This document shows positions 1-32,000 of a stretch of 32,000 bases of DNA, one piece after another (position 1 is the stretch's first letter; every line of letters starts with the position of its first letter). The translations under genes and the position numbers were made by a program. The DNA lies in assembly GCF_049243625.1 (NCBI RefSeq), contig NZ_CP046975.1; one strand, given 5' to 3'. Below the pieces are notes generated by a model, which was given only the letters and a program-made list of their open reading frames with translations, had not been told where the DNA came from and did not search any database. Source of the DNA: Corynebacterium amycolatum. Its GTDB lineage: Bacteria; Actinomycetota; Actinomycetes; Mycobacteriales; Mycobacteriaceae.

Positions 1-1887
1 CCTTGGCTGCAAACCGCTCAACAAGTTTCAGCTGACCAGGCGTTTTTCCATTGGGATCTTGATTTCGCTGCTGTGATGGCTGATGGAGGCTTCGATTTCC
101 AGGTCGGTAACCCGCCTTGGGTTCGCCCGCGCACCGATGTCGATGCTCTCTATTCCGAACACGATCCATGGTTTAGTCTTGCTCATAAACCGACTCAGAC
201 GGATAAAAAGGACCGCAGAAAGCAACTAGCAAACGACGAACGCGTTCTGGCGACCCTCGCACGAGGCTTGTCGGACTCTGTAGTGACTTCTGCTGTGCTG
301 GGCGACGCTACTCGCTTCCCGCATTTAGTTGGTCAGCAACCAGATCTCTACCGAGGTTTCATGGAACAAACCTGGGCCAACGCAGCCCATGACGGTATTG
401 TTTCGCTTATTCACCCGGAGTCTCATTTCACTGAGAAGAAAGCTGCACCGCTTCGCGCGGGTGCCTATCGACGTCTCCGCAGGCATTGGCAGTTCATAAA
501 TGAACGTGTCTTGTTCGACATCGACCATCACGTATCCTATGGTGTCCATATTTATGGTCCACGCCTAGACGTTCCGCACTTCACCAGTGCCGCATCTCTG
601 TATCACCCAAAAACAGTTCTCGATTCCCTTCGTCACGATGGAACTGGTCCGCTACCTGGTCTAAAGGACGACAACGACAACTGGGACCTTCGTCCTCACC
701 GTGATCGCATTATCACGGTAGATATGAAAACTTTGCGACTTTGGCACTCGATTCTCGAGGAACCTGGGACTCCAGTTATCAATTCGAGGACTGTCTATAC
801 AGTCAACACTGAAGCAGCTGCTGTCTTAGCAAAGCTTGCTGCGGCACCACGCGTAAAGGAACTTGGGCTGCAATTCTCGAACGGCTGGCATGAATCTGCT
901 GACAAGAAGCGTGGTTATTTCGACACTTCTTGGCAGCATCCAGAGTCATGGAATGATGTCATCCTTCAAGGTCCTCACCTCGGCGTATCGACTCCGATGA
1001 TTAAGCAGCCCAATCCAACAATGAAACATAACCAGGACTGGTCGGAAATTGATCTCGAGGCTATTCCAGAGGACTTCATTCCTGCAACGGCCTATGCCCC
1101 AAATCGTGCAGCAACAGATTATGACTCGACATATACTCACCACACGGGATCCGACGGAGTCATAGTCTCAGATCGTTCAAAATACCGTTTTGCATGGCGC
1201 AAAATGGCAGCGACAACGGGATTCCGTACATTGTATTCTGCGCTGATTCCAAAAGGTTCAGCGATCTCCGGCTCCTCGGTTTCTGGATTGTCGTTAGTTT
1301 CTGATGAGATTTCTGTAGCCACAGGAGCAAGCCTTTCAGCAATCCTCTCTGATTTCGTAATTCGGTCAACTGGGTTAGCAAACCTATACGCCTCAACTAT
1401 TGAGCTGTTACCAGTAACCGACGCAAATGAGTTTAAAAAGACTTTTGTTTCCAACTACCTTCGCCTTAACTGCCTGACTTCTGCATACGCCCCACTGTGG
1501 GAAGAAATCACTGGTGAGCAGTGGACCACGGATACTCCACTGCGGAATGCCAAAGAACGATGGCATGCGCAAAATGAAATTGATGCAATTGTCGCGCTTT
1601 CCCTTGGCGTGACGGCTGATGAACTATGCATGATTTACCGCACCCAGTTCCCTGTGATGCGGCGGTATGACCAGGAAGACCTGTATGACGCGAATGGGCG
1701 AAAGGTTCCGAAGGACATCGCAAAACTCGAAGGAAAACTGAAGCCCGGAGAGGAATTAAGCGAAGAACGGCGGAAATGGACACATCCTCAGTCAGGTGTG
1801 ACATACACTTTTGAGTATCCATTCGCGCCACTAGACCGCGAAGAAGATCTTCGCGCAGCCTACGCACGATTTGAGAAAGAGCTATAA
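1..1887 (+). CDS. N6-adenine DNA methyltransferase (Eco57I/PglX/DrmMI-like gamma class), C-terminal part; the 5' end lies upstream of the window
   Basis: Frame 1 is open from nt 1, so the listed Met at 73 is internal. The translation reads ...FFHWDLDFAAVMADGGFDFQVGNPPW, with catalytic motif IV NPPW at 109..120. The F-H-W-x-L-D-F context is typical of large adenine methyltransferases from type IIG, BREX and DISARM systems. The AdoMet motif I must be upstream. About 590 aa follow motif IV, presumably the target-recognition region. The stop lies 5 nt before the next gene. Confidence 0.8.
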   Translation, partial: PWLQTAQQVSADQAFFHWDLDFAAVMADGGFDFQVGNPPWVRPRTDVDALYSEHDPWFSLAHKPTQTDKKDRRKQLANDERVLATLARGLSDSVVTSAVLGDATRFPHLVGQQPDLYRGFMEQTWANAAHDGIVSLIHPESHFTEKKAAPLRAGAYRRLRRHWQFINERVLFDIDHHVSYGVHIYGPRLDVPHFTSAASLYHPKTVLDSLRHDGTGPLPGLKDDNDNWDLRPHRDRIITVDMKTLRLWHSILEEPGTPVINSRTVYTVNTEAAAVLAKLAAAPRVKELGLQFSNGWHESADKKRGYFDTSWQHPESWNDVILQGPHLGVSTPMIKQPNPTMKHNQDWSEIDLEAIPEDFIPATAYAPNRAATDYDSTYTHHTGSDGVIVSDRSKYRFAWRKMAATTGFRTLYSALIPKGSAISGSSVSGLSLVSDEISVATGASLSAILSDFVIRSTGLANLYASTIELLPVTDANEFKKTFVSNYLRLNCLTSAYAPLWEEITGEQWTTDTPLRNAKERWHAQNEIDAIVALSLGVTADELCMIYRTQFPVMRRYDQEDLYDANGRKVPKDIAKLEGKLKPGEELSEERRKWTHPQSGVTYTFEYPFAPLDREEDLRAAYARFEKEL

Positions 1888-1892
1888 AAGCC

Positions 1893-4800
1893 GTGTCCAG
1901 CCTTCTGCCTGCCTACGCTGCCGAGCATGTACTCGATGGGTTGAGTGAGTACTTGACCACGAGTTTTTCCCTCGCGGAACGAAATACTGCTGAAAATCTG
2001 GAGCGCTTCCTCAAAGACCCAGTCAATGGAATGTTCCATGGGCCCTACATTCGCACCCGTTTGCCGTATGCACCAGCAACGCAGTGGGAAGGACTACTGG
2101 AGTGGCTACCGGAGTGGTTCGTTCCGTACCGCCACCAGGCTGAAGCATTTAAGAGGTTGTCGTCGTTAAGCGATGGCATAGAGCGTCGCCCCGAACCAAC
2201 CCTGGTAGTTACAGGTACTGGATCAGGTAAGACCGAGTCATTCCTGTACCCGATTCTGGATCATTGTCGGCGAGAACGACTACGCGGTCGTTCAGGCGGA
2301 GTAAAGGCGCTCATCCTCTACCCAATGAACGCACTGGCAAATGACCAGGCAGCACGATTGGCCTCGCTGATTTCTACCGAGCCTGAGTTAGCTGGGATTC
2401 GAGCAGGTATTTACACCGGCGAAAATCAGGGCGACCGGATGTCGGTAAGCGAGGCCGGTCTAATTACTGACCGCGAGACAATGCGGCAATCGCCACCAGA
2501 TATTTTGCTGACCAACTATAAAATGCTGGATCAGCTATTGCTTCGTGATGCAGATGCCAGAATCTGGCAGAAGTCTGCCACCACACTTCAGTACGTGGCG
2601 CTCGACGAGTTCCACACCTATGACGGTGCTCAGGGGACAGACGTTGCACTTTTGCTGCGCAGGATGGGCTTGTGTCTAAAGAAGCATCAGCCCGAAGGTT
2701 TTCTTAACGAGGTTGAAGCGGCACGACCGTTAGGCAAGATTACACCCGTGGCAACCTCTGCCACGCTGGGTAGTGGGGAGAAATCCACCGAGGAAATCCT
2801 TCACTTTGCCCACACGATTTTTGGTGAAGAGCTTCCCTCGGATGCCATCGTTCGTGAAACCACACTGGATATTCCAAGCTGGCAAAATACAATCGCAGAC
2901 TTTACTGGTGTGACCTCCACACCTACATCGATGCCTTCTCGCGATGTTGTAGTCGCCATCAATGATGAAATTGCCCACCAATCCGCCGAAGGCACCGCTG
3001 AGCACGATGCGATTGTGCATCGCGTGTTCTGCGAGCGCGTATTTAGATGCAATGAAGATGTCGATGTAGCAGTCGCGGCAGCGTCGGCAAGCGAGCTGGT
3101 AGTCAAAATACTGGAAAACACCTCCGCTCCAATTCAGCTAGGAAACGCTAATTCTTCAAGTGAGACTTTGGTAGAAGCTGTTCTCGATGCCGAAGTACAT
3201 CGTCTACCCGACGGCGGTGCCGCCGAGTTTCTTTCCCATGCTTTAACTGAGATCGCGTACTTGCGTGCGAAGTTTGGTGAGCTTCACGGGTGGAACGGTA
3301 AGAAATTTCCTGGTGTAGAAACACATCTCTGGGTAAGAGAAGTCTCCCGCGTGGATCGGCGTGTGGGTCTGGGAGCAACCGACAGCCTGAACGATAATGA
3401 CGCGATGTTCCGCTGGTCGGACAACGGTATCGAAAATTCCTACAACGAAAACTACTGGCTCCCCGCTTGCTACTGCCGCAACTGTGGTCGTTCGGGATGG
3501 ATGACTGCCCTGGCCGCTGGCGGAGAATCTATTGAAGCCAATGGCAAAAAGATTCGTCAACAGTCGATTTACAATGGTTCCCTCATGCGTCCCCTGCTGG
3601 ACGCCACGAGCGAAATTACGTCCGGGCACTACCGGATAGAAGATGAATCGGCGGGGGTTTTTTGGCTCAATGTCCGCGAAGAGCAGCTCTCAACTTCGGA
3701 ACCAAGTGAAGAGGAAAAAGAACAGGGCGGTATCGTACCTGTACTCACTTATTCAGGCGAGACTGCAGAGGATTTAGCCAAGAAACAGACATGCCCGTCT
3801 TGCGGAGAAATCAATTCAATTCGCTACCTCGGTTCGTCAGTCGCAACCTTACTGTCGGTAGCAATTTCGAATCTGTTCGGCATGGGCGACCTGGATGATA
3901 GTGAGAAGAAGTCTCTTGTCTTTGTCGACTCTGTCCAGGATGCTGCGCACCGAGCTGGTTTTGTGCAATCCCGAGCTCGAACCTTTGCCATTCGAACCCG
4001 TACACGGCAAATGGTTGGCGATACCCCAATTACGCTCAGCGAACTGCCAAGCAAGTTGATTGACTCAACGGATCAGGATTCCTCCCCGAGCCGCGCCAAA
4101 TTTGAACTGTTGCCACCTTGGGTCGCCGAAAATCAACGCTTCCGCGGATTCTGGGACCCACATGCAGGTAAAAAAGATCGAAAGCGCGCTACCGAGCTAT
4201 TGCGCGATGTTCTCGAACTCGACTTGGCATTGGAATTTGGTGATCGCTCTGATCTGTCTCGATCTCTTGTATCAACCGGCGCTCTGAGTGTCGGCGTCGA
4301 CGTATCGGATGCAGAGCTCGTCGAAGTTATCAGCGAACTGGGAATGCTCCGCGAAGATAGTCCTGCATCGCAAACGGAATCTCTTGGAGCACGGGACGTT
4401 GCTTGGGCTCGCGGCATATTGGAATACATGCGTCAAGCAGGTGGCATCGAGACTAAACTGCTTCAGAGTTACTTGAAGCATGATGGCAATGCATATCTGC
4501 TGAACCGCCGTGAAGCATCGGCTCGAGGAATCCCTAAGTTCCCACGTGGCGGCGCTCCTTCTTTCCCTCGCATCGGTAAAACCCTTCCAACTGAAAAAAC
4601 AGATTTTTCGGTCAATCCACTTGCCAGTGCACGGGGCGCTTATGCGCGGTGGACCGCCTCTATGCTGAAGGTTTCAACCAACGATGCAGCCCATCTAGTA
4701 ACTTCGCTGTTCAAGACTTTGGCTGACCAGGCAATTGTCAATGCCGTGACCACCGATAGCGGTGGAACAATTTATACGCTATCGCCTTCCCGTATCGTAA

Positions 4801-7800
4801 TCTGCCCCGAAGAAAGGAGCGAGATTCTCGAGTGCTCAGTGTGCCAGCGTCGTCTTGCGGTCGATTCCCACGGACGTCAACTTCTTGACGGCGCACCGTG
4901 CATTTCCCTGGGATGTGAAGGGACGTTCGGTATCACCGAAAATCACGATAATTACTACCGTCGGCTCTACCATTCTCGAAACTCGCGAACCGTGGTGGCC
5001 AAGGAACACACTGGCCTTCTTGATTCTGCTGAGCGCGTCGCGCTGGAAAATGAATTCAAAAAGCCTGTAGATGAGCAAAACGCAGATGCTCCGAATATCC
5101 TCGTCGCTACCCCAACACTGGAAATGGGTATCGACATCGGCGACCTATCTACAGTGATGTTGGCTTCTTTGCCAGACACTGTTGCGTCGTACGTACAACG
5201 AGTTGGCCGCGCCGGGCGTCTCACTGGCAATTCCCTGGTGTTGGCCATGGTAGTCGGCCGCCAGAAAGCACTTGCTCGGCTGGCGAACCCAACCGAAACT
5301 ATTGGTGGCGAGGTTCAACCGCCGGCAGCGTTTCTTTCCGCACGCGAGATTCTTCATCGTCAATTTGCAGGTTATTTGATTGATTCGATTGACTTCACTC
5401 AAACTGAAGTAACACCTCGCTTTGCGAATTCAGTATTCGGTATCGGCGGCAAGAACCTGGTTTCTGAACTGGTCAAGCGGCTCGAGGCAGGAGTTGAGGA
5501 CCTAGTTGACGAATTTTCGTCCACGATTGAGGGGCTGACTCGCCAGAACGTTCTCGATGAACTTCGAGAATGGGTGCAGCAAGGCTTCGCCGATCAGCTG
5601 CGCAAGGCTGAAAAAGACTGGCGCGAGGCACGACAGGTACTTATCGGCCGCCGTAAAGTCCTCGAAGAGTTGCTTGACCAGCTTGAAAGAGAAGCTGAAA
5701 CAGCTATGGCTGATGATGAAATCAGGTCGAAGCTACGGAAGACACGCGCCGCTTACAAGTTCACTCGCGCTCAACTGCAGAACTCTTTTGACTCCGAGCA
5801 TTGGGTCTCCGCGCTAGAGCGGTTTGGTATCTTGCCAAACTTCACCTTGCTTGATGACTCTGTGGAATTCTCAGTCTCAATTTCCAGAACCGACGCAACG
5901 ACGGGTGAATTTGAAACTGAGGCACGCGAATACTCGCGTGGCATTTCCTCTGCCTTATTCGAACTTGCGCCCGGCGCGACGTTCTATGCCCAAGGCATTG
6001 CAGCCACTGTGGACTCAGTAGATCTTGGACCACAGAATTCGGCCTTAGAAAAGTGGCGAATCTGCCCGTCTTGCTCCTATTCGGAGATTTATCCAGGAGC
6101 AGGAGAGGTACCAAATAAGGGGCCATGCCCACAGTGTGGTGAAGCAAAGTTCGGCGATATTTCACAAGTTAAGAGTGTCGTCGAGATGCGCAAGGTTTCT
6201 GCATCAGTGGACTACTCGCGTTCAGCTATTACCGACCGGTTCGAGGATCGCCGTCCAACACGGTTTGAGCGAGTCCTATCAATGGTGATTCCAGATGGAG
6301 CGGTTGGCGAAGGCTGGTACCTGGCTGACACGGGCTTCGGTATTCAGTACCTCCCCACAGTAGAACTGCGCTGGCTGAATCTAGGTAAACCTGCTGGCGG
6401 TGCCCGTCAATACCTTGCCGGCACTGAAGTTGAAGCACCAATGTTCCGGGTATGTCGCGAGTGCGGACACATCGATTCTGAAGCAGGCGCTAACCGCTGG
6501 CAGGATCACAAACCCTGGTGTTCTCTGCGACACGCTCGAGACGAAGACACCATCGATTTCGCTCTGGGCCGTCGTTTACAGACACAGGGCGTTCTCATGC
6601 ACCTTCCCACCTCTGTATCAACGACAGACACTAACGCTATCCCGTCGCTAATTGCCTCGTTGAAGATGGGATTCAAGGAATATCTTGGTGGGAATCCTAA
6701 TCATCTCGATGTCACTTCAGTATTCACTGCATCAAACGGCAGCGTCCGCCAGATGCTGCTGCTCCACGACTCTATTCCTGGCGGAACAGGTTATCTTTCG
6801 CAATTCACTGATTCTGCTGACATTCATCGCTTATTGGTTAAGGCGTATAACAAGCTCCGCAACTGCGAGTGTGGCAAAACGTCGCTAAAGGCCTGCCCGC
6901 ATTGCTTGTTACCTTTCACACCGGCTCGTAATGTGGACGTCGTCTCACGGGAATCTGCCCTGGCGACCCTAATCAAAATCCTTCTCGATGACGCGCACCC
7001 AGAGGATCCTGACGCACACATTCCAGAAGACTCCTGGGACGGCCGTATCACAGAGAAGAAACCAGCTCAGTCCGAAAGGTCTGAGTTGGAAGCGATGTTC
7101 CTCGAGCAACTGCGCGCAGACTTGAAGTCTGCAGGTGCAGTGGTCAACGAATCGACCCGCGGACTTAACGCTCTGTGGACCATTCGGTTCCCCAACTCCA
7201 AACTCACGTGGAAAATGGAAGAGCAGAAGAAGCTCCCCGGTAACTTGGGTTCCATCACAACACCGGATTTTTACTTTGATGTAGATGGTGCAGATCTCGA
7301 CCGGATTGCTGTTTACGTCGACGGTGTGCAATTCCACGCGAGTATCACTCACAACCGTGTGGCAGATGATATTGCTCGTCGTAACGCGCTCTACGCTGAT
7401 GGCATCGTGCCGTGGTCTTTGACCATGAAGGACCTGAAAGCCCGCCAAGCCATAGTGAAAGGGAATACCCCCAACGCCCCTTCGTGGTTCGTTAATGATT
7501 TCCGTCAACCGATCAATGGGAAGCTAAACCTCGAGGACAGCTTGCACACCTTGCTGCTGGCAGACCCAATGACGCAGCTTCTGGCCATACTCCAAAACCC
7601 GAGAAAGCGGTGGGACATCCTTTCTAAAGCTGCTGGTTTGCACACGTTAGCGAAGGCATCGATGACCCCAGGTGCATTCGGGCCGCTGATTGAATGCGGC
7701 GCTAAGGGGACACAGCTCTTCCTCGATTTCCGTGTTGAGGACGGTACTCCAAATACAGAAACCTGGAATTGGTTCCTGAACTTGGCTAATTTGTTCTACC

Positions 7801-8246
7801 TCAACGCTTATGCGGCTGGCCGCAATGTCATTAACGTTGAAAATGTCTCTTCTAGTGCCACAACCACAACGCCGAGTGAGTCTGGCGTGACAGACGCGGT
7901 GCTCGAGACTTTCGGGGATGCCGAAGAGACAGATCACGACAAATCTGTAGTGGAAACAATAGCGGCGAACGGCATGTGGGCAGAGGCTATCGATGAATAT
8001 CGGGATGATGAGTCCGAGGTAGTTGCAGCACTACAGCTTATGGTGGCCGCACATGTCATCGAGCCTTCAGACATCGGTGGAGAGATTAACGGCATTCCTA
8101 CTGCGGTAAGTTGGCCAGATAAGCGTGTAGCCCTAGTTTTCCCCGGCGATGCACAGTCTTTTTCCGCCGCTGTTGCGGATGGCTGGACAATCATCGACTC
8201 CGACGGATTCACAACGTCTGCTATTCCTGAATCTCTTCTCTCGTAG
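1893..8246 (+). CDS. Giant (2117 aa) SF2 DEAH-box helicase fused to a DUF1998 (MrfA/DrmB-type) Cys-rich domain and a DUF559/Vsr-like endonuclease motif
   Basis: Uninterrupted 6.35-kb ORF with a GTG start 5 nt after the methyltransferase stop. Helicase motif I is GTGSGKT (2211..2231), motif II is DEFH (2604..2615), and motif V/VI is LVATPTLEMGIDIGDL...QRVGRAGR (motif VI at 5196..5219). Several CxxC clusters and an HDSIPGGTGYL motif are present. The nuclease-like core reads PDFYFDV...IAVYVDGVQFH. Confidence 0.85.
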   Translation: MSSLLPAYAAEHVLDGLSEYLTTSFSLAERNTAENLERFLKDPVNGMFHGPYIRTRLPYAPATQWEGLLEWLPEWFVPYRHQAEAFKRLSSLSDGIERRPEPTLVVTGTGSGKTESFLYPILDHCRRERLRGRSGGVKALILYPMNALANDQAARLASLISTEPELAGIRAGIYTGENQGDRMSVSEAGLITDRETMRQSPPDILLTNYKMLDQLLLRDADARIWQKSATTLQYVALDEFHTYDGAQGTDVALLLRRMGLCLKKHQPEGFLNEVEAARPLGKITPVATSATLGSGEKSTEEILHFAHTIFGEELPSDAIVRETTLDIPSWQNTIADFTGVTSTPTSMPSRDVVVAINDEIAHQSAEGTAEHDAIVHRVFCERVFRCNEDVDVAVAAASASELVVKILENTSAPIQLGNANSSSETLVEAVLDAEVHRLPDGGAAEFLSHALTEIAYLRAKFGELHGWNGKKFPGVETHLWVREVSRVDRRVGLGATDSLNDNDAMFRWSDNGIENSYNENYWLPACYCRNCGRSGWMTALAAGGESIEANGKKIRQQSIYNGSLMRPLLDATSEITSGHYRIEDESAGVFWLNVREEQLSTSEPSEEEKEQGGIVPVLTYSGETAEDLAKKQTCPSCGEINSIRYLGSSVATLLSVAISNLFGMGDLDDSEKKSLVFVDSVQDAAHRAGFVQSRARTFAIRTRTRQMVGDTPITLSELPSKLIDSTDQDSSPSRAKFELLPPWVAENQRFRGFWDPHAGKKDRKRATELLRDVLELDLALEFGDRSDLSRSLVSTGALSVGVDVSDAELVEVISELGMLREDSPASQTESLGARDVAWARGILEYMRQAGGIETKLLQSYLKHDGNAYLLNRREASARGIPKFPRGGAPSFPRIGKTLPTEKTDFSVNPLASARGAYARWTASMLKVSTNDAAHLVTSLFKTLADQAIVNAVTTDSGGTIYTLSPSRIVICPEERSEILECSVCQRRLAVDSHGRQLLDGAPCISLGCEGTFGITENHDNYYRRLYHSRNSRTVVAKEHTGLLDSAERVALENEFKKPVDEQNADAPNILVATPTLEMGIDIGDLSTVMLASLPDTVASYVQRVGRAGRLTGNSLVLAMVVGRQKALARLANPTETIGGEVQPPAAFLSAREILHRQFAGYLIDSIDFTQTEVTPRFANSVFGIGGKNLVSELVKRLEAGVEDLVDEFSSTIEGLTRQNVLDELREWVQQGFADQLRKAEKDWREARQVLIGRRKVLEELLDQLEREAETAMADDEIRSKLRKTRAAYKFTRAQLQNSFDSEHWVSALERFGILPNFTLLDDSVEFSVSISRTDATTGEFETEAREYSRGISSALFELAPGATFYAQGIAATVDSVDLGPQNSALEKWRICPSCSYSEIYPGAGEVPNKGPCPQCGEAKFGDISQVKSVVEMRKVSASVDYSRSAITDRFEDRRPTRFERVLSMVIPDGAVGEGWYLADTGFGIQYLPTVELRWLNLGKPAGGARQYLAGTEVEAPMFRVCRECGHIDSEAGANRWQDHKPWCSLRHARDEDTIDFALGRRLQTQGVLMHLPTSVSTTDTNAIPSLIASLKMGFKEYLGGNPNHLDVTSVFTASNGSVRQMLLLHDSIPGGTGYLSQFTDSADIHRLLVKAYNKLRNCECGKTSLKACPHCLLPFTPARNVDVVSRESALATLIKILLDDAHPEDPDAHIPEDSWDGRITEKKPAQSERSELEAMFLEQLRADLKSAGAVVNESTRGLNALWTIRFPNSKLTWKMEEQKKLPGNLGSITTPDFYFDVDGADLDRIAVYVDGVQFHASITHNRVADDIARRNALYADGIVPWSLTMKDLKARQAIVKGNTPNAPSWFVNDFRQPINGKLNLEDSLHTLLLADPMTQLLAILQNPRKRWDILSKAAGLHTLAKASMTPGAFGPLIECGAKGTQLFLDFRVEDGTPNTETWNWFLNLANLFYLNAYAAGRNVINVENVSSSATTTTPSESGVTDAVLETFGDAEETDHDKSVVETIAANGMWAEAIDEYRDDESEVVAALQLMVAAHVIEPSDIGGEINGIPTAVSWPDKRVALVFPGDAQSFSAAVADGWTIIDSDGFTTSAIPESLLS
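2115..2883 (+). other. RecA1 lobe of the DEAH helicase (motifs Q/I/Ia/II/III)
   Basis: YRHQAEAF precedes Walker A TGTGSGKTE. PMNALANDQ is a motif Ia-like element. LTNYKMLD and DEFHTYDGAQG (motif II) follow, then ATSATLG (motif III-like SAT). Confidence 0.75.
2885..4950 (+). other. Insertion of about 690 aa between the two helicase lobes, carrying Cys clusters
   Basis: There are no helicase motifs between motif III and the HTGLL...LVATPTLEMGIDIG block. The segment contains CYCRNC (3468..3485) and CPSC (3792..3803). It also contains CSVC-x18-CISLGC (4833..4916), which lies immediately before the RecA2 lobe. Confidence 0.6.
4953..5343 (+). other. RecA2 (helicase C-terminal) lobe
   Basis: The sequence reads VAKEHTGLLDSAERVALENEFKK...NILVATPTLEMGIDIGDLSTVMLASLPDTVASYVQRVGRAGR. 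This is the classical SF2 motif IV-VI pattern. Confidence 0.8.
5797..6935 (+). other. DUF1998-like (MrfA/DrmB/DruE-type) zinc-binding region
   Basis: ERFGILPNFTLLDD resembles the hydrophobic LPxY/F-xF motif. A CPSC-x17-CPQC ribbon lies at 6063..6137, followed by CRECGH...C...H at 6453..6533. LLLHDSIPGGTGYLSQF is a GG-x-G-Y signature. The terminal cluster is CEC-x7-CPHC at 6864..6905. Confidence 0.65.
7075..7445 (+). other. DUF559/Vsr-like (restriction-endonuclease-fold) motif region
   Basis: The sequence reads SELEAMFLEQL...TPDFYFDVDGADLDRIAVYVDGVQFHASITHNRVADDIARRNALYADGIVPWSL. It fits the D-F...hhhE/V-x-DG-x-x-H...D..R...L...G pattern of DUF559/Vsr-type endonuclease domains. Confidence 0.5.
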
Positions 8247-8269
8247 CTAGTACAGAAAGGTCTCAATAA

Positions 8270-10615
8270 ATGTCCGCCAACGTTTTCTTTGCAAGCGATT
8301 TCAAGACCATTAAGGGCTTCGAAAAGCAAACGATGCAGTTCATAGAGAAGCTGCGGGAGGATCCAGCAAACCCTTCTCTGAAAGTCAAGCCACTGAAGAA
8401 CGCCGTGGATTCTCGCGTGCGGACGGCGAGAGTCACAGACCAGTACAGAGCTGTGCTGATTGAGCTCGAAGGATCCAAACAGCGTCATTTTCTTCTGATG
8501 AAGATTGACAACCACGATGAGGCCAACGATTATGCGGCCAGACTTCGTATTCGCAGTAATCCTGTCAATGGTGTTCTTGATTTTGTCGTCGAAGAAACCG
8601 AAGACAATGAAGCCGATGTCGCGGCCGAAATCGAATCACGTGCTCAGCAGCTAGCAGCAGAAAAGCTGGCGAAGCTCCAGGCAGAACAGGAGGCTGCAGC
8701 CGCCCACGATGAATCCGAAAGCTCGGAGGATAGTGAGGCGGAGGCACCTGCATCGCGAACGGAGACGCAACAGGGTGAGACAACGACCGTCGTTACGCCA
8801 GCCGTTCCCCCGCGTAAGACACTGATGGACGCGGGGATTGACCAAGAAGCGTTGGAGACTCAGCTTGGAATCTCCAAGGTTTCCATCGGTGCGACGTGGC
8901 GGGCCGAATCTGAGGATGACCTCGAATCTCTGCTGGCTAAGAGCGCTGATTGGGAGAAGGATGCCATCGTCGGCCTGATTGCGGGAATGACCATTGCTGA
9001 GGTCAAGGAAGACCTCGGTCTGGCCCCCGCCTCTCCCACCGACGAAGCCGAGCTCGGCGGTGACGAGATTGTTACTCAGCTCAAGGAAAAGGGACTTGTG
9101 TTTGAGGCTTCCGAAGAGGAGCTTCAGGAGATTTGGGAGAAGGGCTCCTTCCAAGAGTGGCGAGTATTCCTGCACCACTCCCAGCGAAAGGCAGCCTTTG
9201 GCGATCACAAGGGTTCCGCTCGCGTCGTGGGCGGCGCGGGTACTGGCAAGACGGTTGTGCTTGTTCACCGCGCGAAGTACCTGCTGGAGAAGTACCCCAA
9301 CTCGAGCATCCTGCTGACTACGTTTACGCGAGGTCTCGCAAACCAGTTGAAGACCCTGATGAGCACGCTCGATCCGTCCTTCCCGGGAGCTTCCTCCCAC
9401 GGTGCTCCGGGACTGTGGATTTCGGGTATCGACGCACTTGTCCGCCGGGTATTGGACAATGCCCAGACCACAGAACTTGAAGCAGCTATGGAATCTGCTT
9501 TGGGAATCCACGGTTCTTTCGTCCCTCGTCCCTTGGGCGATTACCAAGAGGATCAGATGTGGCAGGAAGCCGCTGAGCTCCACGGCGAAGGCATGCATCC
9601 CTCTAAGCTCCAGGCGGAATTCCTCCGCGGCGAGCTCGTCGATGTCATCCTCACCTCATCCATCAGCACCGAAAAGGAGTACCTGCGCGTTTCCCGTCAG
9701 GGACGCGGTACCTCGCTCAACCGCGCCGAACGCAAGAAGGTGTGGGCTATCTGCCGCTCGTTCCTGCGTTCCTGCGAGCTTGAAGAGCAGCTCCCCTTCC
9801 CCGCCCTCGCCGTCGTCGGTGCCGAAGCGCTCGAGCACCGCGGCGTCCCAATGTTCGAGCATGCGCTTATCGACGAAGCCCAGGACTTCCATGCAGGACA
9901 TTGGCGTTTCCTTCGGGCTGCGGTAGCCAAGGGGGCAGATGACATCTTCATCGCAGAGGACTCTCACCAGCGAATCTATGGTCGCCGTATCATCTTGCGA
10001 AACTACGGCATTGAAACCCGCGGTGGTGCAACCAAACGACTCCGCGTCAACTACCGAACCACCGCGCAGAACCTCTCCTACGCAACCTCGATTCTGGAGG
10101 GTGCAGAATGGATCGACTCAGAAGCTGAAAACGATACGCTCGTCGGTTACCGGTCGCTTGCCAACGGCCCGGCACCGATCATCGCGCACGCAGCCAACAA
10201 GCATGAAGAGTTCGACATCATCGCCACTACGGTCAAACAGTGGCTCAACTCTAATTCCCCATCGATGCACGTAGGGATTCTTACCCGAACTAACCGACAG
10301 TCTGATGAGCTAAAGACCTTCCTCGGCGAGAGAGGCATCTCGGTCTCCGGAGATCGCTCCGGTGCTGTCACATTGAAGAACGAGGTATCGGTGATGACCA
10401 TGCACAACGCAAAGGGCATGGAATTTACCAACGTCATTCTCGCGGATGTTTCCTCGGACAATATGCCCAAAATCTTCGGCTTCAATGCACTTGCGGAGTC
10501 TGAACAAAACGATGCACTTCAGCGTGAGCGGGCGCTACTCTACGTTGCGGCCTCGCGTGCTCGTGACCAGCTCGTCATCACGATGGTTGGTGCGCCTTCG
10601 GAGTTGTTGCCTTGA
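8270..10615 (+). CDS. UvrD/Rep-like SF1 DNA helicase with a RelE/ParE-like N-terminal module and an acidic linker
   Basis: ATG start with a GAAAGG Shine-Dalgarno about 10 nt upstream, 23 nt after the previous stop. Walker A is GGAGTGKT (9230..9253) and Walker B is LIDEAQDF (9866..9889). Further SF1 motifs are RVNYRTT, MTMHNAKGMEF and LLYVAASRARDQLVIT (motif VI). The N-terminal roughly 95 aa read FKTIKGFEKQTMQFIEKLREDPANPSL...RTARVTDQYRAVLIELEGSKQRHFLLMKIDNHDEANDYA. Confidence 0.85.
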   Translation: MSANVFFASDFKTIKGFEKQTMQFIEKLREDPANPSLKVKPLKNAVDSRVRTARVTDQYRAVLIELEGSKQRHFLLMKIDNHDEANDYAARLRIRSNPVNGVLDFVVEETEDNEADVAAEIESRAQQLAAEKLAKLQAEQEAAAAHDESESSEDSEAEAPASRTETQQGETTTVVTPAVPPRKTLMDAGIDQEALETQLGISKVSIGATWRAESEDDLESLLAKSADWEKDAIVGLIAGMTIAEVKEDLGLAPASPTDEAELGGDEIVTQLKEKGLVFEASEEELQEIWEKGSFQEWRVFLHHSQRKAAFGDHKGSARVVGGAGTGKTVVLVHRAKYLLEKYPNSSILLTTFTRGLANQLKTLMSTLDPSFPGASSHGAPGLWISGIDALVRRVLDNAQTTELEAAMESALGIHGSFVPRPLGDYQEDQMWQEAAELHGEGMHPSKLQAEFLRGELVDVILTSSISTEKEYLRVSRQGRGTSLNRAERKKVWAICRSFLRSCELEEQLPFPALAVVGAEALEHRGVPMFEHALIDEAQDFHAGHWRFLRAAVAKGADDIFIAEDSHQRIYGRRIILRNYGIETRGGATKRLRVNYRTTAQNLSYATSILEGAEWIDSEAENDTLVGYRSLANGPAPIIAHAANKHEEFDIIATTVKQWLNSNSPSMHVGILTRTNRQSDELKTFLGERGISVSGDRSGAVTLKNEVSVMTMHNAKGMEFTNVILADVSSDNMPKIFGFNALAESEQNDALQRERALLYVAASRARDQLVITMVGAPSELLP

Positions 10616-11091: not shown

Positions 11092-12993
11092 CTACAAGTT
11101 GAAGGCCTTTCGAATAATAGCGTACACATCTGTAAAAATGTCTAGATCATTGTCTGCAGTTTTGATTAAGTTTTGCTGAAACGAAAATATCTCGTCTGAA
11201 CTCGGCTTAACTCCATCAGGCAATTGGTAGGAATCTCTAACATGCTCACGCCATGCTTCCTTCCAAAGAGAGCCATCATTAAGGCCCCCACCTCGTTCCG
11301 CAACATAGTTTGAAACCGGTTCCAGCGACGGGATACTGTCAGCAACTAACTGTTCAGGGACTCCACCAGGGAGAAACTGCAAATACTCCTTAGCCCAAAG
11401 TGCGCAAGCCCTCCGGCTATCTTCCAAAGTAGAATCATTACTGTTCTTAGGAATCGAAGGGCAACCAGGTCTAAAAATGTAATTTTTCCAAAACGCCTCC
11501 CAGGAGGCATCCGCTCCTAGCTCAGTCTTCAATTCCTTATCAAACGCCGCGAGATTGCGATCAGCAAAACCGGGCGGTCTACCATCTCCGTCAATCAAAA
11601 TAAGGATGTTATCCACACCGGCTAAGGCGTGCGAGGCAGTATTATGATTAACTAGGTCATTCTCTCCACCCGGAAACACCACAACATCAATCGTCTCTAA
11701 CATAATCCTATTCACTTTTCGAATCGCGGTTTCGACGATTAGCTGACTAAGCCGATCCTCTACCAGAACAGTGTAACCTGACTGCGCCCGCAAATCCCCT
11801 ACCCTAAGGAACGCCTCATTTGGCGAACATTTATTCGCTACGAGGTGCACCTTACGATCTTCATTACTAAATGCAAGAACTTTAATAGCTTGCGGCGGAA
11901 GTTCAGCTACGAATGCAGGCGAGTGCGTAGCAATCGCCATTTGGTGCCCATACTTCAAACACTGCCGTACTAGAAAGTCCATCAAACGAGATTGAGCACC
12001 GGGATGCAACGAAGTTTCCGGCTCATCAAAAATAATTAATGAACCAGGCGGGGCTGACAGTACGCTATCTACAATTCGCGCAACGGCAAACTCACCAGCA
12101 CCAGCATGCGCCTCAGAGAATGAACCAGATGAATCTTCGAGAATAAATCTTATTGTAAAACCACGGGTATAAAAGAACCTATGTTCAATGATAGCAATAT
12201 CTGAAAGTGGCTTTCCAATGATTTTGCGGCACTCCTCGACGGCTTCAGCTTCAAAGTACCGAACGGGTTCATGCACTCTTCCAGCAAGAAATTTTGGCAG
12301 ACGATCGCCACGCTCCATTGCCTCAGCCAAGTCTTCAGATTTTTGTACGATTTTATAGCGCTTATCAGTTCTCGAATTTACATCCCTACTTAAAGGCATA
12401 TGATAAAGATATTTATCAAAAGCGCTAATTTCAGAACGAAAATCCATGTAGATTACATTTTTCTCAATCGGGTTCCAGCGATCTCTCTTTTTCGAAATAT
12501 GCTCATCGAACCCTTTCCTTGGAAGAGCTCTCATTCCATCTTTTTGAACACGTTTTGTCGGCTCCCAATAGTCAGGGTCCTTTTTGCCTTCCAGTCGCTT
12601 AGGCAGAGCTTTTGTCTTCCTGTAATTTCTGCTTACACGAGCTTTCCTGCATTCTGCCTCTACACCAGAGTTATCGAATCGATATGTGTAGATGAATCGC
12701 TGAATCTCGTTGGAATTTGCTCCACGAAAATTTTCATTAATATCATCAACTGCAGTTGAAAACCAAAAGTCAGAAACACTCTTTCCAGCTGGCGCGCCGT
12801 ACAGTGCTTGTAAAATCGAGCTCTTATTTGAACCGTTTGCCCCAACCAGCGCTGTAATTGGCCAGTCAAAATCAAGTTCTAAGCCTTTTGCTAACGTCTT
12901 ATAACATGGAAATCTCATCGACGTAATAAAATTATTGAACTTTTTCCAGTTCGTGAATGCGTTAGTCAACTTCAGAACATTATCTACACTCAT
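11092..12993 (-). CDS. ABC/AAA_15-21-type ATPase fused to a Toprim/OLD-like (DUF4435-like) C-terminal domain
   Basis: Walker A is GANGSNKSS (12817..12843). SEAHAGAGEF is an ABC-signature-like element. Walker B/D-loop is LIIFDEPETSLHP (DE at 12022..12027) and the H-loop is IATHSP. The C-terminal half has YTVLVEDRLSQ (Toprim-like Glu, about 11758) and ILILIDGDG (DxD, 11584..11592). A GGGAG Shine-Dalgarno lies 8 nt upstream of the ATG, and the gene starts 14 nt downstream of the methyltransferase stop. Confidence 0.75.
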   Translation of the reverse strand: MSVDNVLKLTNAFTNWKKFNNFITSMRFPCYKTLAKGLELDFDWPITALVGANGSNKSSILQALYGAPAGKSVSDFWFSTAVDDINENFRGANSNEIQRFIYTYRFDNSGVEAECRKARVSRNYRKTKALPKRLEGKKDPDYWEPTKRVQKDGMRALPRKGFDEHISKKRDRWNPIEKNVIYMDFRSEISAFDKYLYHMPLSRDVNSRTDKRYKIVQKSEDLAEAMERGDRLPKFLAGRVHEPVRYFEAEAVEECRKIIGKPLSDIAIIEHRFFYTRGFTIRFILEDSSGSFSEAHAGAGEFAVARIVDSVLSAPPGSLIIFDEPETSLHPGAQSRLMDFLVRQCLKYGHQMAIATHSPAFVAELPPQAIKVLAFSNEDRKVHLVANKCSPNEAFLRVGDLRAQSGYTVLVEDRLSQLIVETAIRKVNRIMLETIDVVVFPGGENDLVNHNTASHALAGVDNILILIDGDGRPPGFADRNLAAFDKELKTELGADASWEAFWKNYIFRPGCPSIPKNSNDSTLEDSRRACALWAKEYLQFLPGGVPEQLVADSIPSLEPVSNYVAERGGGLNDGSLWKEAWREHVRDSYQLPDGVKPSSDEIFSFQQNLIKTADNDLDIFTDVYAIIRKAFNL

Positions 12994-13007: not shown

Positions 13008-14081
13008 CTAAAACTGTTCTAGAATGGTATCTGCGATAGCCGAAGCTAAATCCACTGGTACCGCATTACCGATTTGCTTTGCAATTGCGGTTTTCGATCC
13101 ACACCACAGGTAACTGTCGCTGAAGCCTTGAAGCCTCGCAGCTTCGTGGTGCGTGATTGGCCGATCAGCTACGGGATGCAAGTACCGTCCTTTTTCTGGC
13201 TTAAAGAACTCAGTCCGGATCGTCACCGATGGCCTATCATAAAACAACCGTCCCATTACATCAGAGGAGCCTGAATTATGACTCTTCCAACACTTTGGTA
13301 GATACTCCTCTGGGATTGAAAACCTATTTCCGCCAGGGCCGATATAGCTTATTCGGCGTTTGGTAAGTTCAGTTAAGTTTCTCGTTAGATGTAGTTCTTC
13401 CGATTTGAATGGCCCCGGTATCTTTTTATTCCCTTTCCAAAACCGACCTGAAGGCAACTCCCTTCTGTCTACTTGAACCTGGATACCGGCAGTCGATTCC
13501 CTAAATGTCTTATATCTCGATATCTTTGCATCCTTCAGGCGTTCCGTATTCGGCTTCTTCACATCTTTTCTCCAACCGATTACTATCGCCCTTTTTCGAC
13601 TTTGTGCCACTCCAAAATTAGCAGCATCCAAAATCATTGAATCGAAAGCATAATCCCTTAATAACCCTTCTGCGTTCAATACATATACAAATTCTTGGTA
13701 TTGACTACTTTTCAGAAAAGACGCCACATTCTCGAGCACAAAGTACTTAGGTTTTGTTATGTGAATAAATTCTACATATTTTTCCCATAGGCTGTTTCGC
13801 GGATCATCTGCTTTACGCTTTCCTAATGTCGAAAAGCCCTGACATGGAGGCCCTCCAACCACAATGTCTGCTTCGATATGTCGTTTTTCTTCGAGCCAGC
13901 TTTCAATCTTCCCATTATAAACATTGGCATTAGGATGGTTAGCTTTAAAAGTGGCTGCCGCGGCTACATCAGATTCAATTGCCAGTAAGACATCGATGTC
14001 CTTCTGGCTTCTTAAGAATCCGGCTGAAAATCCACCCGCTCCTGAAAAAATATCTATAAGTGTAATTCTTCTTTTATTCAA
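13008..14081 (-). CDS. dcm: DNA (cytosine-5)-methyltransferase
   Basis: All canonical C5-methyltransferase motifs are present: I DIFSGAGGFSAGF, IV GGPPCQGFS (catalytic Cys codon at 13842..13844), VI FVLENV, VIII QSRKR, IX RPITHHEAARLQGFSDSY and X GNAVP. The start is a TTG only 15 nt downstream of the mctB-like stop, so the start is uncertain. Confidence 0.9.
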   Translation of the reverse strand: MNKRRITLIDIFSGAGGFSAGFLRSQKDIDVLLAIESDVAAAATFKANHPNANVYNGKIESWLEEKRHIEADIVVGGPPCQGFSTLGKRKADDPRNSLWEKYVEFIHITKPKYFVLENVASFLKSSQYQEFVYVLNAEGLLRDYAFDSMILDAANFGVAQSRKRAIVIGWRKDVKKPNTERLKDAKISRYKTFRESTAGIQVQVDRRELPSGRFWKGNKKIPGPFKSEELHLTRNLTELTKRRISYIGPGGNRFSIPEEYLPKCWKSHNSGSSDVMGRLFYDRPSVTIRTEFFKPEKGRYLHPVADRPITHHEAARLQGFSDSYLWCGSKTAIAKQIGNAVPVDLASAIADTILEQF

Positions 14082-21348: not shown

Positions 21349-22545
21349 TTACTTGCTCAGCTCTTCGATGCGCTCGCGAGCATCGAGCATCTGGTCGACA
21401 TCAATCTTGGCGCAGCGGGTAAACCACACCTTGGCATCGTCTTTACGGCCGGCCTCCACCAGCGCATCAGCGTAGGCGTAGAACAGGCGAGCTGCTTCGA
21501 AGTCCTCACGGTCCGGGTTCAAATCCTGGGTCTCCAGCTCAACCAGAGCCTCATCAATCTGGCCCATATCGCGGCGGGCACCTGCGGCGACGATAGCCAG
21601 CTCAGTCTTGGACTCGTTGTCCAGCTGCTTGGCTTCCTCGGAGCGAGCCAGCTCGATGGCCTTCTCCGGGCGGCCGAGGCCGCGCTCACAGTCCGCCATC
21701 ACCGCGAGCATGCCCGGACCACCGGAGATGCGACGAGCAGCACGCAGCTCCGCCAGGGCTTCCTTCCACTCAACTGCGTGGTAAGCGGCAACACCAGCGG
21801 TCTCACGAACGACACCGACGCGGCCTGCGCGGTCCTTCGCTGCGCGGGCGTGCTCCAGGGCACGCTGCGGGTCTTCAGCCATCAGGATTGCAGCCATAAT
21901 CATATGACGAGCGACCTTGTCGGCGTTGTCCTTAGCTAGGCTCTTCAAATCCTGGCGCACGCTCGGGTCGAGCTCGTCTGCACGAATGTCATCTGGCAGC
22001 TTCGGCTCGTTCTTGCGGGCCTCAATGCGCTCCTCGCGGAAACCTGGGCGCTGCGGGCCGGTGCGGTGCGTACGCTTCTCATCCTGGAAGCGACCACCAC
22101 GGTTGGAGCGACGTGGCTTACCACCACGACGGTCGAAGTTGCGGTCTCCCTGGCCACCGCGTCCGCCCGGGCCGCGACGATCATTGCGGTCGCCCCGGTC
22201 GTTGCGGTTGTAACCGCGCTCGCCGCGCTCATTACGATCATCGCGATTGTTGCGGTTGTAACCACGACCGCCACGACCACCGCGTTCATTGCGGTCACCG
22301 CGGTTAAAGTCACGATCGTCGCGATCATCACGACGGAAGCCCCGCGAACCACGGGAATCGCGGTTGCCGCCATGACCACCGTGACCACCACGGCCACGAC
22401 CACCTGGGCCACCGCCCTGTCCACGACGATCGTTGCGGTTGCGCCCGTTAAAGCCGCCCTCGCCACGACCATGGGAACGGTTAGACCCGCGGTTTCCGCG
22501 ATTTCCTCGGCCTTCGCCGGAACGAGGACCTACGTGCTCAGCCAT
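21349..22545 (-). CDS. TPR-repeat protein with a roughly 190-aa Arg/Gly/Asp/Asn-rich low-complexity N-terminus
   Basis: AAGGAG lies 11 nt upstream of the ATG. The N-terminus consists of RGG/RGD/RNDR-type repeats. The C-terminal roughly 200 aa have TPR-like helical repeats (AAYHAVEWKEALAELRAA..., ARLFYAYADALVEAGRKDDAKVWF). Confidence 0.75.
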   Translation of the reverse strand: MAEHVGPRSGEGRGNRGNRGSNRSHGRGEGGFNGRNRNDRRGQGGGPGGRGRGGHGGHGGNRDSRGSRGFRRDDRDDRDFNRGDRNERGGRGGRGYNRNNRDDRNERGERGYNRNDRGDRNDRRGPGGRGGQGDRNFDRRGGKPRRSNRGGRFQDEKRTHRTGPQRPGFREERIEARKNEPKLPDDIRADELDPSVRQDLKSLAKDNADKVARHMIMAAILMAEDPQRALEHARAAKDRAGRVGVVRETAGVAAYHAVEWKEALAELRAARRISGGPGMLAVMADCERGLGRPEKAIELARSEEAKQLDNESKTELAIVAAGARRDMGQIDEALVELETQDLNPDREDFEAARLFYAYADALVEAGRKDDAKVWFTRCAKIDVDQMLDARERIEELSK

Positions 22546-28225: not shown

Positions 28226-28342
28226 TGCCGGCGGCGACCTACTCTCCCACACCCTCCCGAGTGCAGTACCATCGGCGCTGGTGGACTTAGCTTCCGGGTT
28301 CGGAATGGGACCGGGCGTGACCCCACCGCTAACACCACCGAC
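28226..28342 (-). rRNA. rrf: 5S rRNA
   Basis: The reverse complement reads GTCGGTGGTGTTAGCGGTGGGGTCACGCCCGGTCCCATTCCGAACCCGGAAGCTAAGTCCACCAGCGCCGATGGTACTGCACTCGGGAGGGTGTGGGAGAGTAGGTCGCCGCCGGCA. This is a canonical actinobacterial 5S sequence. The ends are accurate to about 3 nt. Confidence 0.93.
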
Positions 28343-28449
28343 AAAAACCAGGCAACAACCAACCCCACCACAAAACTTCGGGTGGGTGGTGTCATGCCAG
28401 ACACTGAACAGTAGACGCGAGCAAAAACCCTAATTTTTCACACTCTCTT

Positions 28450-32000
<3,551 letters not shown>

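Follow-up and report, generated by a model that had tools for sequence, protein, structure and literature searches.

Which anti-phage system does the large defence locus at one end of a Corynebacterium amycolatum sequence encode, and is its architecture new? The locus occupies positions 1-10615 of a 32,000-nt stretch of NZ_CP046975.1 (the window), and a first-pass annotation had read its three genes as a non-canonical operon related to DISARM and Druantia. We conclude, with a probability of roughly 0.93, that they are the last three genes, the first of them truncated by the window edge, of a four-gene ARMADA type II (armABCD) operon. The locus belongs to an already described system and is not a new kind.

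The three open reading frames (ORFs) lie on the + strand at the coordinates given in Table 1, the first being open at its 5′ end. Reading frame 1 of gene 1 is open from base 1, and the listed ORF start at position 73 is an artefact of the window edge. The spacers are short, 5 nt (AAGCC) between genes 1 and 2 and 23 nt between genes 2 and 3, and purine runs resembling Shine-Dalgarno sites precede gene 2 (GAGAAAGAG at 1872-1880) and gene 3 (GAAAGG at 8255-8260). Gene 2 starts with GTG and gene 3 with ATG; the GTG start of the 2117-amino-acid (aa) ORF is supported because homologues open with the same MSSL(I/L)P N-terminus. The ORFs are not chance, because the 2117-aa protein has 6906 database relatives at E<=1e-10, the best 120 of which are full-length. 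The ORFs and the two gaps confirm the proposal that three tightly packed and closely coupled genes form one operon.

An exact match of the 2117-aa protein (records including CP120206.1) provided this genome region extended upstream of armC by 10 kb, a 26-kb region referred to below as L002. As had been suspected, further genes lie upstream of the window, namely armA and the 5′ part of armB, with 9 nt between the armA stop and the armB start. ArmA matches Pfam SNF2-rel_dom and Helicase_C and scores 304 bits on the PADLOC DrmD profile and 178 bits on BrxHII. With a SNF2 gene and the full methylase gene upstream, the operon comprises four genes. The statement in the first-pass annotation that a SNF2 DrmD is absent, with a UvrD-like helicase in its place, is therefore wrong, as the 1004-aa SNF2 gene precedes the methylase gene. 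The SNF2-less, 'non-canonical' reading arose because the window edge hid armA and the 5′ part of armB. Instead of being non-canonical, the architecture is that of canonical ARMADA II, whose strict armABCD order was published in 2025 together with experimental tests. The claim of novelty falls with it, since the architecture is described in the literature, although PADLOC-DB v2.0.0 (2023) contains no ARMADA model, and none for ArmC, and matches the operon to DrmD, REase_MTase_IIG, DruE and GajB-like profiles.

ARMADA II consists of four genes in strict order and is abundant in Actinomycetota and Pseudomonadota, according to Bell et al. (2025, bioRxiv 2025.09.15.676423, PMC12458937). In their description, ArmA is a BrxHII/RapA-like SNF2 helicase and ArmB a PglX-like methyltransferase, while ArmC combines a YprA-family helicase, DUF1998 and, at the C-terminus, a Vsr-type nuclease that is predicted to be active and often has degenerate nuclease-like domains after it, and in ArmD a GajB-like helicase carries a RelE-like domain fused N-terminally. 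The corresponding features are present here, with ArmA first, ArmB with its NPPW motif second, the ArmC-DUF1998 fusion third and ArmD last.

For comparison we used E. coli O157 Sakai (NC_002695, ECs_5261-5264), which we equate with the system of Bell et al. because its motif positions coincide with the residues mutated there. The E. coli Arm counterpart is the best and co-linear match for each of the four Corynebacterium proteins. Specifically, ArmA aligns at 35% identity over 839 aa (E 8e-141), ArmB at 31% over 1618 aa (671 bits) and ArmD at 30% over 797 aa (E 2e-86, N-terminal domain included), and BLASTP of ArmC yields 421+218 bits, co-linear over 4-322 and 472-1849. In E. coli NCTC 12900 the system gives direct protection, without killing the cells, from 13 of 80 phages, and for this it depends on each of its four genes, on the Walker motifs in ArmA and ArmC, on the ArmD Walker A and on the ArmB NPPW (PMC12458937). 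All eight residues that were mutated in E. coli are kept in Corynebacterium: ArmA K153 and D252 match the essential K136 and D236, ArmB G562 and N928 align to G605 and N971, ArmC K113 and D238 to K110 and D234, which are both essential for defence, and ArmD K327 and D535 to K266 and D454 (PMC12458937 for the E. coli phenotypes). Defence by armABCD of enterohaemorrhagic E. coli (EHEC) EDL933 (z5899-z5902) was confirmed independently, with a weaker need for armD (mBio 2026, PMC13463889).

The E. coli O157:H7 systems (NCTC 12900, EDL933, Sakai) and the Corynebacterium operon thus share the same four proteins, order and strand, near full-length and co-linear at 32-35% global identity, with a predicted Vsr-type nuclease on ArmC and a predicted RelE-fold domain on ArmD in both. 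They differ in host phylum, the Corynebacterium system belonging to the Actinomycetota. ArmB is shorter in Corynebacterium (1519 versus 1644 aa) and ArmD longer (781 versus 704 aa), the ArmC tail after aa ~1850 is too diverged from E. coli ArmC for BLAST, and the genes at the two window junctions are spaced by 5 and 23 nt where those of E. coli overlap. Unlike at the E. coli ARMADA locus, no neighbouring Druantia III or Zorya II is present in the 26 kb.

The neighbourhood survey that had been suggested across Actinobacteria bears out the assignment. It took one genome per species and covered 80 actinobacterial loci. The order A-B-C-D on one strand is found in 51 of the 62 loci with enough upstream sequence, as well as in this genome, and ArmD lies downstream of ArmC in 77/77 loci. 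The median intergenic gaps at these loci are -1 to 2 nt, and armB is always embedded in armABCD at the related loci.

Kinship to DISARM class 1 and Druantia had been inferred, and it stands, as Bell et al. place ARMADA between the two and term it the 'missing link' (PMC12458937). DISARM class 1 (DrmD, DrmMI, DrmA, DrmB, DrmC) likewise has a SNF2 helicase, a large N6-adenine methyltransferase and a YprA-family helicase with DUF1998, and the two systems are likely to have in common an action on phage DNA containing single-stranded DNA (ssDNA). The operon could accordingly be read as a non-canonical form of DISARM class 1, with DrmA and DrmB fused, a Vsr-like domain in place of DrmC and a UvrD-like helicase in place of DrmD; ArmA scores best on DrmD, ArmB reaches 191 bits on DrmMI, DUF1998/MZB is present, and by definition ARMADA has two further proteins in common with DISARM class 1 (PMC12458937). 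We consider this very improbable. The SNF2 gene is present, so nothing has replaced DrmD, and all four proteins match ARMADA II components full-length. DISARM class 1 has separate DrmA and DrmB genes, whereas helicase and DUF1998 are fused here, and it has the phospholipase D (PLD) nuclease DrmC, in place of which the Corynebacterium operon has the predicted Vsr-type domain and an extra RelE-UvrD helicase; no PLD gene or domain occurs in any protein of the 26-kb region. Furthermore, NCBIfam DISARM_DrmAL gives the 2117-aa protein only 28.6 bits where the cut-off is 999, and PADLOC gives it 59 bits on DrmA versus 287 bits on DruE3. By profile scores ArmC lies on the Druantia/ARMADA helicase branch and DISARM DrmA on another.

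The same scores raise the alternative of a Druantia variant, that is, a DruE-type helicase with new partner genes. The best PADLOC profiles of ArmC are DruE3, DruE1 and DruE2 (195-287 bits, the DruE3 match falling in three separate stretches), and its closest solved structure is the 2108-aa helicase 9tu7 (E 8.6e-46), ahead of YprA/MrfA 6znp and Lhr 5v9x and 7lhl. Indeed, Druantia III DruE (9tu7 and related entries) is the closest characterised helicase to ArmC, with inserted domains and Cys clusters in common, and as a 3′-5′, ssDNA-loading enzyme it is the best model for ArmC translocation. In addition, a C5-cytosine methyltransferase gene with DruM2 as its best profile lies 2.4 kb downstream on the other strand. 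However, E. coli ArmC outscores the DruE of the same O157 island by 639 to 225 summed bits (125+100 bits for DruE) and is co-linear with the Corynebacterium protein to aa 1849, so that pairwise and profile scores assign ArmC closer to E. coli ArmC than to DruE or DrmA. No DruH, DruA-D or DruF/G homologue is found in L002, and the cytosine methyltransferase gene is not accompanied by DruF or DruG, nor is it conserved beside related operons. In Druantia III, DruE has tandem PLD-like domains and acts together with DruH; ArmC has a nuclease of predicted Vsr type and is accompanied by ArmA, ArmB and ArmD. A Druantia variant is barely credible on this evidence.

ArmC itself has the composition expected of ARMADA II. 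DEAD, Helicase_C and MZB (Pfam) all fall in the single 2117-aa ORF, in agreement with the proposed fusion of helicase and DUF1998. Inserted domains totalling ~770 aa keep the two RecA domains apart and contain CxxC clusters at aa 528, 634 and 981; seven CxxC motifs were counted in the protein. The helicase box had been given as DEAH; it is indeed of the DExH type, but it reads DEFH at position 238 and is not literally DEAH. Of the MZB cysteines, C1671 is kept throughout the homologue alignment, and C1658, C1660 and C1668 nearly throughout.

A Vsr/DUF559-type nuclease in place of a PLD nuclease had also been proposed for the C-terminus, and family comparison favours it. In an alignment of 59 orthologous segments restricted to the nuclease domain, 44 segments have a match of their own to PF18741 (REase_MTES_1575; E 6e-7 at best), and there are a few matches to DUF559, Vsr or DUF2726. 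The invariant residues D1792, D1810, H1815 and D1826 align with Vsr D51, H64, H69 and D97, in an hhalign comparison that is weak (E 0.0022, probability 13%), and the best PDB match of the 59-sequence profile is 3R3P (E 0.17). By comparison, a profile of 11 C-terminal sequences had no match to PDB sequences at E<=10 and its hhalign comparison with E. coli Vsr was meaningless (probability 0.2%); the usable but weak links came only from the deeper, nuclease-only alignment. These results are consistent with a Vsr-type nuclease domain on ArmC, on evidence weaker than that for the RelE fold discussed below. The AlphaFold model of aa 1690-2117, a 428-aa fragment, has a mean pLDDT (the predicted local distance difference test score) of 77, with fragment residues 291-332 disordered. 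The tail beyond the nuclease has conserved W/N/G positions in common with E. coli ArmC and probably corresponds to the degenerate extra nuclease-like domains described for ARMADA II ArmC, a candidate assignment.

ArmD also resembles its E. coli counterpart throughout. Its helicase part has the UvrD-type superfamily 1 (SF1) core of Gabija GajB and of the UvrD/PcrA SF1A helicases, scoring 90 bits on the PADLOC NERD+UvrD profile and 74 bits on GajB, and its nearest solved structures are UvrD (3lfu, E 1e-16), PcrA and Rep. Unlike GajB and UvrD, it has an N-terminal RelE/ParE fold and a linker of ~190 aa, and no GajA partner. The RelE-like N-terminus on an SF1 helicase, suggested in the first-pass annotation, is supported by structure prediction: a model of aa 1-115 built from a 19-sequence alignment (pLDDT 89, predicted template modelling score (pTM) 0.81) gave YoeB/ParE 6n90 as the top Foldseek match in the PDB (E 1.4e-4, probability 1.00), followed by YafQ and M. 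tuberculosis RelE3. In this predicted domain R51 is invariant and R49, T52, R54, R60, H82 and D83 are nearly invariant, a pattern compatible with an active RelE-type site. Between the RelE domain and the helicase core, aa 108-300 (8591-9169) form an acidic Ala/Glu-rich linker, probably a coiled coil, and a further region of ~100 aa. This stretch accounts for the 77 aa by which ArmD exceeds E. coli ArmD.

The portion of ArmB within the window comprises the end of the catalytic domain and a putative target-recognition region. It matches Pfam Eco57I (E 7.9e-10) and positions 903-1529 of the 1532 of PADLOC REase_MTase_IIG PDLC03611 (E 7.7e-284); the full protein matches Pfam MmeI_Mtase along with Eco57I and reaches 2050 bits over the full length of PDLC03611, a REBASE-derived 'type IIG' profile. 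Pfam found no nuclease domain in the N-terminal ~500 aa of ArmB. BREX (PglX, BrxHII) also has a large Eco57I-type adenine methylase and a SNF2-type helicase, and its methylase is needed for defence as well as modification. Here, BrxA, BrxB, BrxC, BrxL and PglZ are absent and ArmB scores only 16.6 bits on PglX versus 191 on DrmMI (PADLOC).

The type IIG match leaves one further explanation, namely that a housekeeping repair helicase of the MrfA/YprA or Lhr kind stands next to a stand-alone type IIG restriction-modification (R-M) enzyme; the MZB domain is named after MrfA, and the YprA/MrfA and Lhr structures are among the PDB matches of ArmC. The large protein is not assigned to these families, its NCBIfam scores being far below the cut-offs (for example 65 versus 850 on DEXH_lig_assoc and 41 versus 1496 on PRK09751), and no MrfB-like exonuclease partner is present. 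The four-gene order with near-zero gaps recurs across many actinobacterial genera, and the low G+C content (GC), the flanking defence genes and the defence cargo in related loci all argue for a defence function. We regard the chance of a repair helicase here as practically negligible.

Given an ARMADA II operon, how might it act? Drawing on E. coli genetics and on the relatives DruE and DISARM, we propose a chain of steps to which we give slightly less than an even chance as a whole. ArmB, probably with ArmA, would methylate adenines in a host motif as a self mark, and would also be needed for the restriction step, as in BREX and in type IIG or III enzymes. ArmC would load on incoming or replicating phage DNA that is unmodified, at single-stranded or forked regions, and translocate 3′-5′, like MrfA and DruE, and its predicted Vsr-type domain would nick or cut the unmodified phage DNA. 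ArmD would then unwind from nicks or ends, as UvrD does after Vsr or MutH incision, and its RelE-like domain may bind or cleave RNA as an accessory or back-up arm. DruE, for its part, is a dimeric 3′-5′ helicase that loads on exposed ssDNA, and DISARM DrmAB recognises ssDNA overhangs and works alongside host methylation.

Several points weigh against the assignment or against the activities proposed from it. In the available text of the two ARMADA papers the experimental data are from E. coli systems only, with no actinobacterial system (PMC12458937, PMC13463889), and no solved ARMADA structure is among the PDB matches of ArmC and ArmD. The C-terminal nuclease segment of this particular ArmC matches no Pfam nuclease family at E<=1, the hhalign link of the nuclease profile to Vsr has the low probability given above, and Foldseek of the 428-aa C-terminal model against the PDB returned nothing significant, the best match being TnsA, a PD-(D/E)xK protein, at E 0.07; the last result is weak because a multi-domain query dilutes the signal. 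In some C. amycolatum and Corynebacterium sp. strains armC is annotated in fragments (627+1454 aa in ATCC 6931, 1084+1045 aa, 1643 aa), so that in part of the species the system is dispensable and decaying. The non-abortive phenotype is difficult to square with a RelE-type RNase, unless the latter is non-catalytic or under tight control. Finally, host methylation by ArmB as the self mark is putative, and the authors of the EHEC study expect recognition of DNA structure, not sequence (PMC13463889).

This last expectation corresponds to a rival account of how the same ARMADA II system tells self from non-self without an epigenetic mark: ArmC, with ArmA and ArmD, would sense ssDNA gaps, ends or forks, and ArmB would be mainly a structural or regulatory DNA-binding subunit. 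It is consistent with the partial loss of defence in the S-adenosylmethionine-binding mutant G605A of E. coli ArmB (PMC12458937), with armB deletions that are viable and for which the available text of both papers reports no autoimmunity (PMC12458937, PMC13463889), and with the triggering of DruE and DrmAB, the nearest ArmC relatives, by ssDNA-containing structures. Against it, N971A in the NPPW motif abolishes defence (PMC12458937). Moreover, the Corynebacterium ArmB keeps a complete methyltransferase domain and a target-recognition-domain-like C-terminal region of ~590 aa, with all motifs conserved. The relatives DISARM DrmMI and BREX PglX do methylate host DNA. We rate sensing of structure alone as rather unlikely, and retain methylation-guided restriction as a tentative working model.

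The related loci add a feature that the window operon lacks. Extra genes of 0.7-9.7 kb are inserted at the armB-armC junction in 19 of 61 related loci, compared with 1 of 44 at armA-armB and 2 of 54 at armC-armD. This cargo is diverse, mostly mutually unrelated and rich in defence genes, including GmrSD (three loci), an AriA/PtuA-like ABC ATPase with a further partner, a PDC-S08 5′-nucleotidase and SoFic, as well as an Mrr-like protein, an NYN domain protein, a GTPase-like protein and DUF5677 (examples in Table 1). In actinobacterial ARMADA II, embedded defence genes have their slot at the armB-armC junction. Hma and other multi-gene systems also harbour embedded defence genes, and the candidates in Hma belong to the same cargo classes (Payne et al. 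2024, bioRxiv 10.1101/2024.01.29.577857); unlike in Hma, the host here is ARMADA II and the insertions are concentrated at one junction, which in the window operon is free of cargo. The available text of Bell et al. makes no mention of embedding at ARMADA operons (PMC12458937).

Taken jointly, a 'nick-and-unwind' machine, in which the Vsr-type domain of ArmC would nick unmethylated phage DNA, ArmD would unwind it and RelE would serve as a conditional RNA-directed arm, together with an armB-armC junction that is a dedicated cargo slot, is a speculative combination that we think improbable in full. Its first half echoes Vsr/MutH-UvrD repair. Neither point is found in the available text of the ARMADA papers (PMC12458937, PMC13463889).

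Table 1. Positions of the ARMADA II genes, their domains and motifs, and cargo in related loci. Coordinates refer to the window unless a locus is named.
Feature	Position	Strand	Remarks
armA, SNF2/BrxHII-like helicase (translocase), 1004 aa	L002 2412-5426	+	outside the window, directly upstream of armB
armB, full gene	L002 5436-9995	+	starts 2673 nt upstream of the window
armB, 3′ part	1-1887	+	C-terminal 628 aa of the 1519-aa PglX/DrmMI-like N6-adenine DNA methyltransferase
GNPPW, methyltransferase catalytic motif IV (N928 of full ArmB)	106-120	+	read from the sequence
armC, YprA-family superfamily 2 helicase with fused OB-CON-DUF1998 and predicted C-terminal Vsr-type nuclease, 2117 aa	1893-8246	+	
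ArmC RecA1 (DEAD), aa 80-266	2130-2690	+	Pfam DEAD
ArmC Walker A GSGKT (aa 110, K113)	2220-2234	+	
ArmC DEFH box (D238)	2604-2615	+	DExH type
ArmC RecA2 (Helicase_C) core, aa 1033-1110	4989-5222	+	Pfam, E 7.5e-15
ArmC MZB/DUF1998 zinc-binding domain, aa 1590-1672	6660-6908	+	Pfam PF09369, E 1.4e-10
ArmC predicted Vsr-type PD-(D/E)xK nuclease domain, aa ~1730-1850	7080-7442	+	D1792, D1810, H1815, D1826, R1830 invariant
ArmC tail, aa 1870-2117	7500-8243	+	helical domain, disordered linker, small terminal alpha/beta domain (AlphaFold model)
armD, UvrD/GajB-like SF1 helicase with predicted RelE-fold N-terminus, 781 aa	8270-10615	+	Pfam UvrD-helicase, UvrD_C (aa 303-772)
ArmD predicted RelE/ParE-superfamily domain, aa 1-107	8270-8590	+	AlphaFold and Foldseek
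ArmD SF1 helicase core	9176-10585	+	Walker A GTGKT at 9239-9253 (K327), Walker B D535
Cargo examples (loci L007-L086)	L026 8134-9987; L066 6991-9998; L086 6093-9280; L013 7695-9823		
Cargo examples, continued	L014 982-5981; L038 8082-9753; L055 8817-9671		

Base composition sets the operon apart from its surroundings. In 1-kb bins, GC is 0.49-0.54 over 1-9 kb and 0.597 at 9-10 kb, inside gene 3; between 11 and 14 kb it drops to 0.42-0.45, and from 14 kb onwards, in the core, it is 0.60-0.67. Judged by a GC below that of the core, the operon is in a horizontally acquired defence island; the first-pass annotation had thought such acquisition probable. No tRNA is found in the window or in L002, and neither a tRNA nor an integrase lies within the 26-kb region. 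An empty insertion site was sought through contigs with the exact flanking MctB protein, and the island was present in every contig among the matches listed.

Next to armD, on the - strand, 11092-12993 encodes a 633-aa ABC-type ATPase (Pfam AAA_21, AAA_15) with putative Toprim-type C-terminal motifs (VLVEDRLS..., ILILIDGDG) recognised by eye. Its best PADLOC profile is HEC-04 (108 bits, partial), a validated single-gene ATPase-TOPRIM defence (Payne et al. 2024, bioRxiv 10.1101/2024.01.29.577857). The C5-cytosine DNA methyltransferase gene dcm (13008-14081, - strand, 357 aa) ends 14 nt before the ATPase-Toprim gene downstream of it and scores highest on the PADLOC profile DruM2 (327 bits), with no DruF, DruG or DruE partner. 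Dcm and the OLD-like nuclease may form an R-M-like pair. The two were considered as members of the operon and rejected, being on the opposite strand, at a GC of 0.42-0.45 and not conserved beside armD in the 80 loci; because of their lower GC and this lack of conservation we treat them as a separate module.

On the other side of the operon, 5.7-6.8 kb upstream of the window and divergent from armA, L002 carries mrr, a gene for a type IV methyl-directed restriction enzyme (1340-2360, - strand). It is split by a linker frameshift into ORFs for Mrr_N (157 aa) and Mrr_cat (170 aa), and it is split in 5/5 contigs examined. Conflict with the two methylases of the island may have led to its inactivation.

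The rest of the window is core genome, with mctB, steA, recN, nadK, tlyA and an iron ABC transporter. In the conserved recN-nadK-tlyA neighbourhood, flanked by the genes for the HAD hydrolase and RNase H, 21349-22545 (- strand) encodes a 398-aa protein whose N-terminal ~170 aa are rich in RG, RGG and DR repeats (GRGNRGNRG...RGGRGGRGYNRNNRDDRNERGERG...) and whose C-terminal half is helical and TPR-like, with no Pfam match on record. The ORF-free stretch of strongly skewed, lower-GC composition at 28226-32000 is explained by an rRNA operon on the - strand (5S at 28226-28342, 23S at 28450-31539 and, from 31926 up to the end of the window, the 3′ end of 16S).

Corynebacterium amycolatum is an emerging multidrug-resistant opportunist. 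A large locus with vague annotations ('DEAD/DEAH box helicase', '3'-5' exonuclease') is now assigned in this species to a defined anti-phage system, and its case illustrates that a canonical operon can seem non-canonical when a window edge cuts through it. The operon, the HEC-04-like nuclease, Dcm and the frameshifted Mrr gene together make up a restriction barrier, in which the ArmB methylase is predicted probably to set a strain-specific N6-methyladenine mark; this is relevant to phage therapy and to how readily corynebacteria can be transformed. As a compact Gram-positive orthologue with all catalytic residues intact, the operon is a usable second model for ARMADA.

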